Numbered from the stretch's first letter, positions 4,579 through 17,203 are shown. The stretch is 64,000 nt of DNA from a virus (IMGVR_UViG_3300044620_001883:64001-128000), one strand, 5' to 3'. Notes: generated by a model from the letters alone, not told the origin. Translations and numbers: made by a program.

Positions 4579-4939
4579 AACACCCAGCAAACCCACGCCC
4601 TATGATGGGCTTCCGCTAGAAGCCAAAGAACTGGCAGCCTTTGCGCTCTTCAAGGCGCTGCTGCAGCCGGTGGACGCAAAAGACTCACGGCCGCTGGGGG
4701 CTGTGATAAGCCTGAAGTCTTGGGAGACGTGCGCCGAGGCGGACCAAGCTGAGCTGCACTGGCGCGACGACAAGAACCTGCGCTTCATTTTCCGCAGCTT
4801 CGGCCGGGTTGTGGTTGAGGAGTTGCTGCAACAGGGCTTCACGATCAGACCGCCACGTGAAAAACAAATGCTCGACCAGCTCGATGCGGTCGTGACAGTA
4901 CCGTCACACCCTGCCTACCAACTGACGGACGACATCTGA
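4571..4939 (+). CDS. hypothetical protein
   Basis: ORF tiling. Confidence 0.6.
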   Translation: MTETPSKPTPYDGLPLEAKELAAFALFKALLQPVDAKDSRPLGAVISLKSWETCAEADQAELHWRDDKNLRFIFRSFGRVVVEELLQQGFTIRPPREKQMLDQLDAVVTVPSHPAYQLTDDI

Positions 4940-4944
4940 TACTT

Positions 4945-5406
4945 ATGCATGTCGCGCGACTACTCCAGATGGCTGATTACCTTGATCGTCTGGATCCGTC
5001 GCGTTTCACCATGCAGGCCTGGGTGCGCGTACCGCAGGCTCCGCGTTCGCACTTGATCAACCAACTCCCACCGGACAGCCGAGCTTGCCCGGTGGGATGG
5101 CTTCCTGACTTGGATCCTGAAAACTGGTGTTGGGTGGCCGTGCCTGAATCCTCTGAAGGGAAAGTGGAGTTGACCATCTACCCCGTGTGCAAGGTAGCCG
5201 CGGTATGGTGTGGGGAGGGACTGCAACCACATAACCTTGACCTCAATCCGGTGGTGTGTCGGGTGTGGCAGCAGGTGCGAGAATGGTTCGAGCTGGATTC
5301 GTTACAGCTGACGGGGCGGCTATTTGAGAGCAGTGGGTATGGTAATGGCGAGCCGGAACCGGGTCAAGTGGCGCGACGCATACGCGAGACAGTTTGTGTG
5401 CAATAA
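4945..5406 (+). CDS. hypothetical protein
   Basis: ORF tiling. Confidence 0.6.
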   Translation: MHVARLLQMADYLDRLDPSRFTMQAWVRVPQAPRSHLINQLPPDSRACPVGWLPDLDPENWCWVAVPESSEGKVELTIYPVCKVAAVWCGEGLQPHNLDLNPVVCRVWQQVREWFELDSLQLTGRLFESSGYGNGEPEPGQVARRIRETVCVQ

Positions 5407-5431
5407 CACACACCAACGCGTTATAGAAATT

Positions 5432-5745
5432 TGAGGACGGCTACGCTTGGTGGCGCCTCACCCATCTCCCGAAAGGGCACGAACTGGGGACCTTCGGGTC
5501 CCCGCCTGCGTACTGGCTCGCTACCAGCACGCAGGTTTGTTCGGCTTCGGGCTTTGCAGTGACTTCATCGGGTCATGCATTTGGGGAAATCAAACAGGTC
5601 ATGGGTGACCTGTACGATGGTTCGTGTTCACGAGACCCCACAGGGGCGGGAATCAATATGGGGCGGCATACGCCCCCACAGGGCCCAACTGGCCCGACCG
5701 CTGACCTGGCAGTTACTACCAGGATCGTTCCGGCGAAATCCGGTT
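5432..5745 (+). ncRNA. putative highly structured ncRNA or structured 5' leader (unassigned family)
   Basis: About 13 near-contiguous hairpins, e.g. CCC-GAAA-GGG, GGGGACC-TTCG-GGTCCCC, ACAGGTCA-TGGG-TGACCTGT, GGGGCG-GCATA-CGCCCC, plus long-range helix 5478-5484/5620-5626. No credible ORF; tetraloop identity favours the + strand. Confidence 0.6.
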
Positions 5746-5752
5746 CCACACC

Positions 5753-7060
5753 ATGCAGAACAAAAGCAAACAGATGAGTCTCTCCAACATGTTCGCCCAA
5801 GGACTCACATCTATGGGCGCTCTCCTGGAGAGCAATGAGCAGTTCGCGAACCTCGCGGCGGCAAGACCGCCGCGCTGCCGCTTGACCAGCAGCTACGCAG
5901 GCCCCAACGATTTCACGTTGGAGGTCATCGGGGAACAGATGCCGGCACCGGCGAAGGTGGATGAGGCGACGGTGCGCCTCATGAAGGGATGGCTGGCCAG
6001 TCGCCAGGTCATCACGGGAATCCTTCAGGGGGATAACCTCCTGGAGGACATGTCAGTCGAGGAGGCGATCGATCTCCTCGACCAGCACCGTATCATTAAG
6101 CCCCGTGACAAGAAGTCGCTGGGCATGACCGTGTGGGAACATGCAGTTCCGCACTGCTTGTTCCGTCAGTCCCTGGAGTTCCTCCAGAAAGCAGGACCTG
6201 GCCTCCCGGCAGCCTGGGACGTGGTGGAACTCCTCGAGGATGACGACGGCACCCAAGTGGGTGTCAGCCGCGCGGATCTCGAGGACTTGATCAAGAAGAT
6301 CAAGGCCGTCGAGGCCATCGTGACGAACCTGCCCAAGATCGCAGGTCCGTTCATCCCGCTTGGGGCCGCGACACCGCGCCCCTCGCTGGACACCTCGGAT
6401 ATCCAGCGCAACACCCGCTGGGTGCCGCTGAGCCGCTGGGGTGGTACGACGGCGTTCAAGTTGCGGATTGAGGTCCGCAACGGTCGTATGACGGCCATGT
6501 CGGCCGTTCCTGAACTGGAGGGCGGTACTCGGGAGAAACCCGAGGTCGTCCAACAGGCGCGCAACCCCGACCGCCACGGGCGTCCACAGCTGACGCCCCT
6601 GCCGTCTCTTCCGCCCCTGGCGGAAGACTGCCGGTTCCTCACGGACACTTTCGCACGCCGGGAGGAGATCCTCCAGGCAGCGCCAGAGTTCGCGAAATGG
6701 GCAGGAGCGGCAGGGCTACCGCTCTTCCTGCTTCAGCAGATCAACCTGACAAAGTCGGGGAAGGTCTGGCTGCAGGACGTGATGGATCAGCAGCAGCAGG
6801 CCAAGGAGGACTTGGCCGCTGCAAAGGCTGAGGCGGCCGCCGCTGTGGCCGTTGCAATGGGTGTTCAGAACGGAGAGGTCGGCGACGATTTCTCGATTCT
6901 GGAGAATGCGATTTCGTCCGCACCGATTGCGGATGAAATCGAGATCGAGCCTGAGGTGATTTCGTCCGCACCGATTGCGGATGAGATCGAGATCGAGCCT
7001 GAGGTCGAGGCAACACCAGCTGAGGCCGAAACGACACCCGCCGAGATGGCAGTTGTTTAA
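5753..7060 (+). CDS. hypothetical protein with acidic repetitive C-terminal tail
   Basis: 435 aa ORF with strongly C/G-ending codons; tail ISSAPIADEIEIEPEV x2. Confidence 0.75.
   Translation: MQNKSKQMSLSNMFAQGLTSMGALLESNEQFANLAAARPPRCRLTSSYAGPNDFTLEVIGEQMPAPAKVDEATVRLMKGWLASRQVITGILQGDNLLEDMSVEEAIDLLDQHRIIKPRDKKSLGMTVWEHAVPHCLFRQSLEFLQKAGPGLPAAWDVVELLEDDDGTQVGVSRADLEDLIKKIKAVEAIVTNLPKIAGPFIPLGAATPRPSLDTSDIQRNTRWVPLSRWGGTTAFKLRIEVRNGRMTAMSAVPELEGGTREKPEVVQQARNPDRHGRPQLTPLPSLPPLAEDCRFLTDTFARREEILQAAPEFAKWAGAAGLPLFLLQQINLTKSGKVWLQDVMDQQQQAKEDLAAAKAEAAAAVAVAMGVQNGEVGDDFSILENAISSAPIADEIEIEPEVISSAPIADEIEIEPEVEATPAEAETTPAEMAVV
6910..7005 (+). repeat. 48-bp tandem duplication (in frame)
   Basis: gatttcgtccgcaccgattgcggatga(a/g)atcgagatcgagcctgaggt twice, one mismatch. 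Confidence 0.9.
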
Positions 7061-7068
7061 GTGACCAC

Positions 7069-7120
7069 GGCGTGGGCCGGCTCAGGGGGTAACACCCCTG
7101 GGCCGGTTCCCGCCATCATT
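7069..7120 (+). terminator. long GC-rich hairpin after the 5753-7060 stop codon
   Basis: CCGGCTCAGGGG-GTAACA-CCCCTGGGCCGG (12 bp) extended by GGCG/CGCC, followed by ATCATTTT. Confidence 0.6.
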
Positions 7121-7174
7121 TTAGCTATTGCGTCTTGCTGTGTACTGCTTAGATGTAAGCATCATATAGTACAC

Positions 7175-7582
7175 ATGCACTTCGATCCTCCGGAACTCGC
7201 CGTCATTGCCGACCTAATCTTGTGGTTACTCCAGGACGGTAACATCGCCGACCAAGTGACGCAGCATGGCATCAGCCTCCCGGATTTGAAGCTCAAGCTC
7301 CTGCAGGTACAAGAGACCAGTCATGACAGTGAACCCCTGTTGTTGGATGAACCAAGCAGTGATTACGAGGAGCGCAGACGCCGCAAGCCAGCCACCGTGA
7401 AGGAGAAATCACGGAACATAGCCACGCTGGTAAATTGCTACAGCAAGAAGTCGCTGACAGGTATGCAGCTACAGGAGGCTTTCTTGGAGTCCCCGAAGCA
7501 GGACCTCGTTGATTTTATCATGCTTTCACTTTTAGGATGGGCACCCCCACAGCAGCGGAAGAAATTCCCAGCGGTCAATTAG
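7175..7582 (+). CDS. hypothetical protein
   Basis: In-frame ATG at 7175 after the hairpin region. Confidence 0.55.
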   Translation: MHFDPPELAVIADLILWLLQDGNIADQVTQHGISLPDLKLKLLQVQETSHDSEPLLLDEPSSDYEERRRRKPATVKEKSRNIATLVNCYSKKSLTGMQLQEAFLESPKQDLVDFIMLSLLGWAPPQQRKKFPAVN

Positions 7583-14868: not shown

Positions 14869-15309
14869 ATGTTCAAAGCACCTCTCATCAACGCCGCCGC
14901 CAACACAAGCCCGAGCGCGCACATCAGACTCAACTACGGCACCCCAAGTGGGGAGGCCCTGCCGAGTCTGACATCCAGCCCAATGGCGGATGCGCTGCTG
15001 CGCTTTGGTCGGGCGGCTCTAATGCCCGCAGGGCGTGCTGAGACGTTTGAACCTTCAACATACCGCCTGCCGAATCTCATAGGGCGCATGAACGGCAGTT
15101 ACGGGGTGGGTGGTGAGTTCTACGCAAAGGCGCTCGGCAACGTGGAGGCAGCGCAACAGCTTGCAGCGCAGTCTCAGGCTGGTCTCATGGCCGCCGTGCA
15201 GGGCACCGGTGCCGCCCCCTACGCGCTACCGCTGTATGAAACCTTGCAGGACCCACGTTGGGGACCTGAGGCCAGCAATCTCCGCAACGCGCTTTTCCAT
15301 GCATCGTGA
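14869..15309 (+). CDS. hypothetical protein
   Basis: ORF tiling, overlaps the RNAP start. Confidence 0.55.
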   Translation: MFKAPLINAAANTSPSAHIRLNYGTPSGEALPSLTSSPMADALLRFGRAALMPAGRAETFEPSTYRLPNLIGRMNGSYGVGGEFYAKALGNVEAAQQLAAQSQAGLMAAVQGTGAAPYALPLYETLQDPRWGPEASNLRNALFHAS

Positions 15310-17203
15310 AGTCGTTAACGCCCAGTATGAATTGGATCGGCGCCCTGAAGAGGACGTCGATTTCGAGTTCATGTCTCCCAATCAATTCGTCGGTCCCAAT
15401 GTCGGGCTGATCCCGCTGCAGAATGCCGTCCAACCTACCCGGTTGTTCTACGGTGCCCGTTTCGCCAACCAGGCACAACCACTGGTAAAACCAGAGGCAC
15501 CATGGATCCAGACCAGCATGGATGACACGCCGGACACGTCATTTGACGACATGCTTGGCGGTACGGCCGGCGCTATCCGCTCTGACGGGGACGCCACGGT
15601 TGAGGATGTGGCGGACACACAAATCAAACTGCGACTGGCAGATGGAACTCCCAAGGTGATCGGGCTGTATCGCAACATGCCCTTCAACCGGTACAGCGGA
15701 ATCACACAGACCCCGACGGTCACGAAGGGACAGACTGTCAAAGCCAAGGACCTGCTGGCCCGTTCCAACTTCACAGACGAGAAGGGTTCCCTGGCGTTAG
15801 GCCTCAACGCCCGTGTGGGGGTTGTTCCCTTCAAGGGGTTCTCGATGGATGATGCCATGGTGGTCTCGGACAAGTTCGCAAAGCGGGCCACCAGCCTCCA
15901 TCTGGATTCCATCGACAAGGACTTTTCAGGGGGCAACCTGAAGAGCGGCCAAGACCACTTCAAGTCACTGTTCCCTGACATGTACACCAAAGATCAGCTC
16001 ACGCTGCTGGACGAGCACGGCATCGTGCGTCCAGGTCAGGTTGTACAACCGGGCGACCCTCTGATCCTGGCCACCCGTCCGCGCAACTTCAATTCAGCCC
16101 AGTCACAAAGCCTGGGGCGCTTGGGCAAGGTAGCGAGACAGCTCCGCGCGGATGCCTCTGTGCAGTGGGACAGCGCAGTGCCAGGTACCGTCACGGACGT
16201 GGTGCGCAAGAATGACGGATCTGTGAAGGTGCTGGTCGAGAGTCATCGCCCCATGCAGAAGGGCGACAAGCTTGTCCTGCGCTCGGGCCAGAAGGGGATC
16301 GTCTCAGCGGTCATCCCCGAGCATGAGATGCTCCGCACAGCGTCGGGTGAACCGCTGGAGATGCTGCTCAACCAACAGGGTCTCCCATCGCGTGCCAACC
16401 CCTCGCTGTTACTTGAGATCCTTCTTGGAAAAGTTGCAGCCAAGTCAGGCACCCCAATGAAGCTCCCGGCGTTCAATCCGAACGAGGACAGTTGGATAGA
16501 CTTTGTGGCGGCCAAGCTCAAGGAAGCAGGCATGACCGACAAGGAGACTGTGTTCGATCCCAAGGACAACCGCAAGCTGGACAGGCCGATCACAACCGGC
16601 AATGCCTACGTGTTGAAGCTGCACCACATCGCAGAGCACAAATACGACGCACGTGGGCAAGGGGGGTATGACCAGGACGGACAACCTTCGAAGGGGTCTG
16701 GCCTTGGTGGCGGCGCCAAACGTCGCTCAGGTCTCGAGACTACCGTGATGCTCAGCAGCGGCGCGTACAACAACCTCCGGGAGTCCAGCACATTGACGGG
16801 GCAGCAGAACGATGATTTCTGGCGCACCTTCAGGTCAGGGCAAACCCCCAAAGCTCCAGGCTCTCCTTTTGTGTTCCAAAAGTTCAGGGCACTTCTGAAC
16901 GGTGCTGGCATGCACGCGCGCGAAATGGGCGGCGGCAAACTTCGGTTGGGTCTCCTGACTGACAAACAGCTCGAGCAATTCAAACCCCTGAAAGTACATT
17001 CCGGTGAGACCATTGACTTCCGCACCTTGGCTCCCAAGGCAGGCGGTCTCTTCGACCCGGCATTGGTGGCCAACAAGAACTGGGGTTACATTGACCTCCC
17101 GGAGCCTATGCCGAACCCAGCCGCAGAGGACACCATTCGCCAGCTGCTTGGGATCACTCGCAAGGACTTCGAGGAAGTTCTTGCCGGTACTCGGCCGCTG
17201 TGA
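15299..17203 (+). CDS. multi-subunit RNA polymerase polypeptide: beta C-terminal half with beta'-N-like tail
   Basis: GLIPLQNAVQPTRLFYGARFANQAQPL, GFSMDDAMVVS, GDKLVLRSGQKGIVS, NQQGLPSRAN, AYVLKLHHIAEHKYDARG match conserved RpoB blocks; ETIDFRTLAPKAGGLFD...WGYIDLPEP matches the RpoC N-terminus. Confidence 0.9.
   Translation: MHREVVNAQYELDRRPEEDVDFEFMSPNQFVGPNVGLIPLQNAVQPTRLFYGARFANQAQPLVKPEAPWIQTSMDDTPDTSFDDMLGGTAGAIRSDGDATVEDVADTQIKLRLADGTPKVIGLYRNMPFNRYSGITQTPTVTKGQTVKAKDLLARSNFTDEKGSLALGLNARVGVVPFKGFSMDDAMVVSDKFAKRATSLHLDSIDKDFSGGNLKSGQDHFKSLFPDMYTKDQLTLLDEHGIVRPGQVVQPGDPLILATRPRNFNSAQSQSLGRLGKVARQLRADASVQWDSAVPGTVTDVVRKNDGSVKVLVESHRPMQKGDKLVLRSGQKGIVSAVIPEHEMLRTASGEPLEMLLNQQGLPSRANPSLLLEILLGKVAAKSGTPMKLPAFNPNEDSWIDFVAAKLKEAGMTDKETVFDPKDNRKLDRPITTGNAYVLKLHHIAEHKYDARGQGGYDQDGQPSKGSGLGGGAKRRSGLETTVMLSSGAYNNLRESSTLTGQQNDDFWRTFRSGQTPKAPGSPFVFQKFRALLNGAGMHAREMGGGKLRLGLLTDKQLEQFKPLKVHSGETIDFRTLAPKAGGLFDPALVANKNWGYIDLPEPMPNPAAEDTIRQLLGITRKDFEEVLAGTRPL

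Follow-up and report, generated by a model that had tools for sequence, protein, structure and literature searches.

A candidate structured 5' leader conserved with its orphan gene in an uncultured freshwater jumbo-type phage

Background

The mRNA of T4 gene 32 is subject to autogenous translational control and has a long structured leader, an open start-codon region and a very stable message. Phage single-strand-binding proteins that regulate their own synthesis carry a disordered, acidic C-terminal tail. The put sites of phage HK022 are RNAs that act in cis to bring about processive antitermination.

The early promoters of jumbo phages have conserved AT-rich motifs of about 10 nt near position -10 (PMC7598289, a review). 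Small RNAs from 5'UTRs of jumbo phages were identified by their transcript ends and result from premature termination; sRNA005 of 201phi2-1, located upstream of gp277, is also present in phiKZ, EL and PA3 (PMC11512511). The PeSL (promoter-early stem-loop) cassettes of T4-type phages are short, occur many times per genome and consist of a sigma-70-type promoter, one terminator stem-loop and a Shine-Dalgarno sequence (PMC2839356). Here these systems are compared with a hairpin-rich intergenic region of an uncultured phage, for which an earlier note had proposed a large structured RNA.

Results and Discussion

The locus and its phage

The region is a 346-nt gap (positions 5407-5752) in a window of 64,000 nucleotides, the whole stretch of DNA that was analysed, which is part of a 121-kb IMG/VR virus contig with an estimated completeness of 59%. 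The source of the phage is lake-water metagenomes only, and none of the 10 sequencing runs listed for the stretch is recorded as RNA. It is classed as a jumbo-type phage because the contig carries genes for a split multisubunit RNA polymerase, the beta subunit of which is 31% identical to its best cultured match, so that the phage is only distantly related to cultured ones; blastn and tblastn comparisons of the locus and of the downstream protein with cultured phages returned nothing. The gap lies between a 153-codon ORF (4945-5406) and a 435-codon ORF (5753-7060), both of which are orphans on the + strand, in the same sense as all neighbouring genes. An exact copy of the product of the 153-codon ORF (145 residues, from an internal start) is encoded on a contig of 137,688 bases in the NCBI assembly GCA_041447055.1 and again on a contig of about 200 kb. 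Public data probably include a more complete genome of this phage. The features of the locus are collected in Table 1.

Table 1. Positions of the features discussed in the text, in window coordinates.
Feature	Position	Strand	Remarks
AT-rich promoter-like motif TTATAGAAATTTG	5421-5433	+	candidate promoter for phage RNA polymerase
H1 hairpin	5432-5460	+	starts at the motif's last bases (TG); -13 kcal/mol; candidate 5'-terminal stem-loop of the transcript
Invariant 18-nt strand TCCCGAAAGGGCAYGAAC	5467-5484	+	same in all four homologs; includes H2 and the 5' arm of Pa
H2	5468-5477	+	CCC-GAAA-GGG; invariant stem
Three-way junction	5480-5543	+	closing helix Pa with H3 and H4
Pa closing helix	5480-5484 with 5539-5543	+	
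H3	5486-5503	+	UUCG loop
H4	5505-5535	+	12 bp; 7-nt loop CUNNNUA
Variable middle module	5555-5650	+	dispensable; absent from L003 and L008
H5	5555-5579	+	middle module
H6	5580-5594	+	middle module
H7	5594-5613	+	middle module
Far GTTCGTG	5620-5626	+	middle module
H8	5636-5646	+	middle module
3' hairpin set	5660-5743	+	H9 to H12
H9	5660-5676	+	3' hairpin set
H10	5681-5695	+	3' hairpin set
H11	5705-5723	+	3' hairpin set
H12	5730-5743	+	3' hairpin set
Open start-codon window	5744-5790	+	A/C-rich; ATG at 5753; no Shine-Dalgarno sequence
Orphan ORF, 435 codons	5753-7060	+	mRNA more structured than the leader; homologs in 13 protein clusters
Terminator-like end	7069-7124	+	about 20-bp hairpin (7069-7114), about -42 kcal/mol, then ATCATTTTAG T-run, directly after the stop of the 435-codon ORF
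Polymerase beta fragment	15110-17203		in the window

The 435-residue protein has three close relatives (91, 82 and 62% identity), to which a profile search of 1.8 billion proteins added ten more distant clusters of full-length homologs; the 13 clusters share one gene neighbourhood, with a gene for a GP88-domain protein a few genes upstream. An AlphaFold model (pLDDT 74) has a mixed alpha/beta core at residues 40-370, approximately, and a tail that is disordered, acidic and internally duplicated. The protein has no match in Pfam or PHROG and none, by sequence, among solved structures, and its fold has no clear match in Foldseek searches of PDB and BFVD, VIA-align wide, AlphaFold DB clusters or the ESM Atlas. 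In BFVD, the fold search listed a few phage single-strand-binding proteins at E of about 1, which is not evidence for the identity of the orphan protein.

The promoter-like motif

The earlier note had read a TATAGA ahead of the hairpins as -10-like. The sequence is promoter-like, but it is part of a 13-nt motif, TTATAGANNTTTG, rather than a lone -10 box. Three copies of this motif occur on the + strand of the 121 kb and none on the - strand; about 0.06 copies would be expected by chance. The copies are at window coordinates -30401, -12304 and 5421, each just past a stop codon and ahead of a leader of 250-370 nt and a large orphan gene, and each heads a run of co-directional genes after its long leader. 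No sigma-70-like site was found on the + strand from 4800 to 7400. Eight related loci (L003, L004, L005, L009, L012, L013, L069 and L073) have a close variant of the motif upstream of the homologous gene. When the copies of the window genome and its relatives are taken together, about 8 of 11 have a minimum-energy hairpin that begins with either the first or the second base of the motif's final TG, with different arms, although such single hairpins are not individually significant against shuffles. A comparison of the three leaders of this genome for a further common motif was set aside, the promoter being all that they have in common apart from a few short strings that look like chance.

At the second copy (L016:2646-2968, - strand; about -12304 to -11974), a stretch of 323 nt folds at z -7.1, and the structure around it spans approximately 1.1 kb. 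The third copy (L015:2908-3165, - strand; about -30401 to -30137) stands ahead of an orphan gene of 596 codons. Its 258-nt leader is weakly structured (z -1.9), and the motif is therefore not always accompanied by a hairpin array.

Like the early promoters described for jumbo phages (PMC7598289), this is a conserved AT-rich word of about 10-13 nt in a GC-richer genome; a small number of copies stand before operons, and the phage has its own split multisubunit polymerases. Its sequence departs from the published consensus motifs, and a hairpin starting from the motif's final bases does not figure in the promoter descriptions of that review. PeSL cassettes (PMC2839356) resemble the locus more loosely, in that a promoter and an adjacent stem-loop are intergenic, beside orphan genes, where relatives gain or lose genes, as in the related locus L005, which has an insertion after the motif-end hairpin. 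They differ in that the motif here is a single AT-rich 13-mer that is not sigma-70-like, present in three copies only, with its hairpin downstream and then about 300 nt of multi-helix RNA. From its sequence and placement, the motif is predicted to function as a promoter, with a start site at or near its end and early timing.

The presence of a structured RNA right after a special motif, in only three copies that each precede a long leader and co-directional genes, also recalls the put sites of HK022, by analogy with which the hairpins would be a cis-acting processive antitermination RNA for the phage polymerase. Against this, the leaders of this genome share, besides the promoter, only those few chance-like strings. 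Furthermore, a strong terminator-like hairpin ends the unit directly after one gene, and in L005 a whole gene parts the conserved domain from the promoter, the domain remaining with the orphan gene. An antitermination role is thus very improbable.

Hairpins of the gap

All 12 local stems that the earlier note had placed between 5432 and 5745 fold as described and where described, and together they account for 224 of the 314 nt (71%). Comparison of the fold energy of the gap with that of dinucleotide shuffles, a check named beforehand, also bore out the note, with z on the + strand from about -2.7 to -3.6. Over 5407-5752, z is -3.54 on the + strand and -4.72 on the - strand; over 5433-5752, the + strand gives -2.70, or -3.6 in a second set of shuffles. 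The - strand folds as well as the + strand or better (z -4.5 to -4.7 versus -2.7 to -3.6) because most of the stems are perfect Watson-Crick pairs, and thermodynamics alone cannot tell one strand from the other in the leader.

The absence of a known RNA class from the gap was confirmed: covariance models of Rfam 15, including those of riboswitches, ribozymes, RNase P, SRP, 6S, tmRNA and GOLLD/ROOL/HEARO, gave no family at or above the gathering threshold in the 64-kb window or in 10 related loci. The best sub-threshold match between 5300 and 5900 was to sX13, at 21.3 bits versus a cut-off of 50. A GC hairpin within the 435-codon ORF (5843-5878, - strand) has a sub-threshold match to CRISPR-DR29 (22.7 bits versus a cut-off of 39, E 0.025), which is probably due to chance. 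ARAGORN found no tRNA or tmRNA gene in the window.

Three further possibilities were considered and rejected. Small ORFs within the gap are ruled out by indels in relatives that break every frame. A CsrA-type sponge was set aside, as only one loop contains GGA. The H4 loop, CUNNNUA, recalls an anticodon loop, but its stem has 12 bp, and ARAGORN did not detect it.

Conservation among relatives

The same non-coding element is found directly upstream of the same orphan gene in L003, L004 and L005, which with the window make up a comparison set of four distinct sequences, of which three are closely related; a further locus, L008, is identical to L003 in the aligned part of the gap. The leader of the window is identical to those of L003, L004 and L005 at 0.84, 0.74 and 0.57 of positions, respectively, whereas identity at third-codon positions of the adjacent ORF is 0.58, 0.53 and 0.48. 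By this measure the alignments show the leader to be under purifying selection, being more conserved than third-codon positions. It is not coding, because its indels take no account of codon length: L003 differs in length by 95 nt, and L004 has gaps of 1 and 2 nt.

The 5' domain, which consists of H2, Pa, H3 and H4, has 27 base pairs, and 98.1% of the cells of the alignment are paired across the four sequences. Compensatory change among homologs, as the earlier note had anticipated, is observed: 12 of the 27 pairs have changes in both partners, and in 500 column shuffles the domain was not equalled on any of five measures, although four sequences give little statistical depth for covariation. 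In slid controls, with the partner moved by 1-3 columns, pairing in the domain falls to 27-49%. Between the window and L005, 11 of the 12 pairs of H4 have changed, yet the stem still forms and the loop is kept. The 18-nt strand at the head of the domain is unchanged in the alignments, while neighbouring stems have changed almost every base.

Outside the 5' domain, where helices were delimited by eye, H5, H7, H8, H9 and H10 are kept as hairpins with different arm sequences, with compensatory changes in H9 and H10. In L004 and L005, H5, H7 and H8 are at the same places with other arms, and the H5 loop CUUCRUCRGG is kept. The stems of H11 and H12 are nearly invariant and give no information on pairing; the flanks of H11, CTGACCTGGCAG..CCAGGAYCG, are invariant. 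On this comparative evidence, the structure is real, selected and non-coding.

The element is modular. About 96 nt (5555-5650, from H5 to H8) are missing from L003 and L008, and in L005 a gene of 208 codons has been inserted after the promoter-like motif and the first hairpin, while the orphan gene is still immediately preceded by the junction and the 3' hairpins, ahead of which stands a different hairpin. The alignments thereby show that the leader goes with the gene and not with the promoter, and the single compact large structured RNA that the earlier note had envisaged does not fit such changes. In sequence, the L005 insertion (L005:2766-3669) consists of a different leader of 277 nt and the 208-codon gene, flanked on one side by the motif plus first hairpin and on the other by the conserved junction; the insertion ends in a 7-bp hairpin that replaces H1.

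The long-range helix that had been proposed between CACGAAC (5478-5484) and GTTCGTG (5620-5626) is present in the window, where it covaries in comparison with L005, but its 3' partner is deleted in L003 and unrecognisable in L004, and it is rivalled by the nearer GTTCG (5539-5543), which, as GTTCR, is the partner present in all four sequences.

The distribution of the element is narrow. A covariance model of the three-way junction found its four training sequences only, in the related loci and the contig. The contigs of more distant relatives have upstream gaps of 92-185 nt with unrelated hairpins, and retain only the AT-rich promoter-like motif, the hairpin that begins from its last bases, and short unrelated leaders. 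Further relatives were sought by pattern scans of IMG/VR viral contigs, which gave two chance matches only, by comparison of the 18-nt strand with metagenome contigs, which gave 52 matches, all due to chance, and by protein-guided scans of viral contigs, which gave nothing. Contigs of four lake metagenome runs contained low-depth pieces of the same phage only, with no informative variants and no joints. The element belongs to no curated RNA family, and is a structured phage leader that is real and of narrow distribution.

The structured ORF and the end of the unit

Structure was scanned over most of the contig in 1181 windows of 320 nt, with the folding energy adjusted for G+C. The leader ranks 49th of the 1181, and windows in the ORF (5833-7032) rank 1, 2, 4, 6, 7 and 9, which makes the ORF the most structured stretch scanned; most of the other top ranks are held by the surroundings of the second promoter copy. 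In comparison with dinucleotide shuffles, the ORF gives z of -6.05 (5993-6312) and -7.38 (6713-7032), and the homologous ORFs of six relatives have z mostly from -2 to -6. The dense hairpins of the gap are thus real but not peculiar to it, since the downstream ORF is more structured, and the array is one part of a hyper-structured unit composed of promoter, leader, ORF and terminator-like hairpin. At 6055-6082, VEEAIDLLD is encoded as a near-palindrome, and in L003 a Val-to-Ile change in one arm of this hairpin is accompanied by a matching synonymous change of an Asp codon in the other. Overall, the ORF hairpins have been rebuilt rather than conserved, the alifold covariation term being approximately 0 versus -3.25 for the leader.

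The hairpin that ends the unit was seen in the sequence and the fold, and was not called by a simple terminator scan. A second hairpin beyond it contains TATAG and abuts the next start codon (7175).

Level of the structure and its strand

That the structure acts as RNA, as had been proposed, is supported by the kinds of mismatch tolerated. On the + strand, the helices as delimited by eye contain 264 Watson-Crick, 10 G.U and 1 A.C pairs, an argument that amounts to about a dozen events; in the 5' domain, a count by program gives four G.U cells and two unpaired cells, both with A opposite C. The H3 loop is of UNCG type (UUCG, UGCG) in three of the four homologs. Together, the approximately tenfold excess of G.U over A.C and the H3 loop favour an RNA of the + strand.

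Hairpins of this kind could instead be a feature of the DNA with no role of their own in RNA, such as inverted repeats produced or perfected by template switching in replication or recombination, or structures of single-stranded DNA at an origin or a recombination hot spot. The stems are mostly perfect Watson-Crick helices, both strands fold about equally in the leader and most of the ORF, and the wealth of hairpins runs on across the border of non-coding and coding sequence, as would be expected of such a feature. Relatives differ by insertions and deletions at the locus, and the ORF hairpins are at similar places in relatives but often rebuilt, in keeping with their negligible alifold term. 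Arguing for RNA are the G.U intermediates, the retention of UNCG and GNRA loops, the conservation of the leader beyond that of third-codon positions, and the bounds of the unit, which on the + strand are a promoter-like motif and a terminator-like hairpin. The last ORF window also folds far better on the + strand (-160.6 kcal/mol versus -126.5 on the -, with 13 versus 5 G.U pairs). A purely DNA-level origin of the hairpins is accordingly rather improbable, and an element that is a real, conserved and undescribed structure at the RNA level is supported.

Proposed role as a 5' leader

The stretch is non-coding, extends on the coding strand from a promoter-like motif towards a start codon, and has been conserved along with the downstream gene. 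The best reading of these observations, with a probability of roughly 0.55, is that it is the cis-acting structured 5' leader of a very structured monocistronic phage mRNA. The earlier note had offered an undescribed ncRNA, a ribozyme and a translational leader, of which the last fits best; no terminator from which a separate RNA could be set free is present on the + strand. Observations that count against a leader include the equal or better folding of the - strand and the rank of 49 among 1181.

The region of the start codon is predicted to be accessible. From 0 to +20 at the start, the predicted unpaired probability is about 0.7, versus a transcript mean of 0.36, and L004 and L005 are alike in this respect; the last hairpin of the leader ends 9 nt before the ATG. 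Among the long ATG ORFs of the contig, 102 of 131 have no match of at least 4 nt to AGGAGG within 20 nt upstream. Judging from these sequences, translation in the host probably starts mostly without Shine-Dalgarno pairing, and starts so poor in Shine-Dalgarno sequences may be a hint at the host lineage.

A mechanism that would follow from the cis-acting leader can be outlined. The unit would consist of the promoter (5421-5433), the leader (about 5433-5752), the ORF (5753-7060) and the terminator-like hairpin (7069-7114). The phage RNA polymerase would start at or just past the AT-rich motif, so that H1, formed by the first bases transcribed, would cap the 5' end of an mRNA that is probably early. 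The three-way junction and a variable number of hairpins would keep the leader compact, the ORF would continue in the same manner, and the compact message would resist single-strand-specific nucleases. The A/C-rich window at the AUG would stay open, so that ribosomes could initiate there independently of Shine-Dalgarno pairing, in keeping with most other genes of this phage. The outcome would be a long-lived, nuclease-resistant and well-translated message, with the sequence-invariant strand of the junction as a possible docking site for a regulator. Transcription of the unit, its start site, its stabilising and translational role and any regulator are all predicted here; the existence of the hairpins, their maintenance by compensatory change and the unusual structure of the whole unit are observed.

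The leader of T4 gene 32 is comparable in being long and structured, with an open start region (predicted in the present case) and a protein with an acidic C-terminal tail. It differs in its known pseudoknot, and the 435-residue protein has no detectable OB fold or other match. In comparison with the small RNAs of jumbo-phage 5'UTRs (PMC11512511), the element is likewise a structured RNA directly upstream of a conserved jumbo-phage gene, with a structure conserved among related phages. It is much longer (about 320 nt, with 12 hairpins), belongs to a distantly related phage, and is known from sequence rather than from transcript ends, with no terminator-like site on the + strand of 5407-5752 in a terminator scan.

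The invariance of the 18-nt strand and the conservation of the H4 and H5 loops point to sequence-specific recognition, beyond what a role in stability alone would require. They are also the basis of a different reading, in which a sensor (a new riboswitch aptamer or a protein operator) is formed by the junction domain (5467-5552), with or without the 3' hairpins, or the leader is cut out as a trans-acting sRNA. The invariant strand and conserved loops adjoin stems that covary freely, as a binding site might, and CAYGAAC can pair either with the near GTTCR (5539-5543) or with the far GTTCRTG (5620-5626), both of which covary between the window and L005; alternative partners are the kind of pairing that switches use, and so count in favour of a sensor. 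The binder could possibly be the 435-residue product itself, by analogy with the autoregulation of T4 gene 32, its modelled tail being disordered and acidic. For the sRNA variant, small RNAs derived from 5'UTRs are documented in jumbo phage 201phi2-1 (PMC11512511).

Several observations are at odds with these proposals. No Rfam model matches, and the + strand of 5407-5752 has neither a terminator nor a platform that would sequester a Shine-Dalgarno sequence, so that this leader has no expression platform alternating with an aptamer as riboswitches do. L003 and L008 have lost the far partner, which is unrecognisable in L004; more distant relatives in which the gene is retained give no match to the junction model; and the downstream gene is not metabolic. 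The 435-residue protein also has no recognisable nucleic-acid-binding fold. A sensor, operator or excised sRNA is therefore unlikely, while retaining an appreciable share of the probability.

A self-cleaving or otherwise catalytic RNA is extremely improbable. Only the general look of the element, a multi-helix junction with invariant single-stranded bases, recalls a ribozyme; no ribozyme model of Rfam matched, even when E values up to 10 were admitted, the element can do without a third of its length, and the junction is confined to four close relatives, beyond which its model finds nothing. The earlier suggestion of a ribozyme is hence not sustained.

The preferred reading of a cis-acting leader may be extended to the unit as a whole, which may be an 'armoured' message: selection may keep leader and ORF almost fully paired, with one open window at the AUG and with amino-acid changes compensated by synonymous changes, and the purpose may be to survive an RNA-targeting nuclease of the host or of a rival. 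Within that unit, the invariant three-way junction may be a new class of sensor or operator specific to this clade of freshwater jumbo phages. Both proposals are speculative and unlikely.

Conclusions

At the RNA level, little is understood about jumbo phages that encode RNA polymerases of their own, and least about those from fresh water that are uncultured. The present locus offers a candidate promoter class, in which an AT-rich 13-mer is followed at once by a hairpin, on at least nine related phage contigs; an RNA motif that is supported by covariation and has no database match; and a rare case of an entire transcription unit, coding part included, that is far more structured than the rest of its genome. 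If a role in stability or nuclease evasion is true, the locus bears on how such phages guard their early transcripts, and a junction that acts as a sensor would be a new regulatory RNA. Should neither be true, the locus would still be a well-documented example of a modular, fast-evolving phage leader, and a warning against taking wall-to-wall hairpins as the mark of a giant functional RNA.
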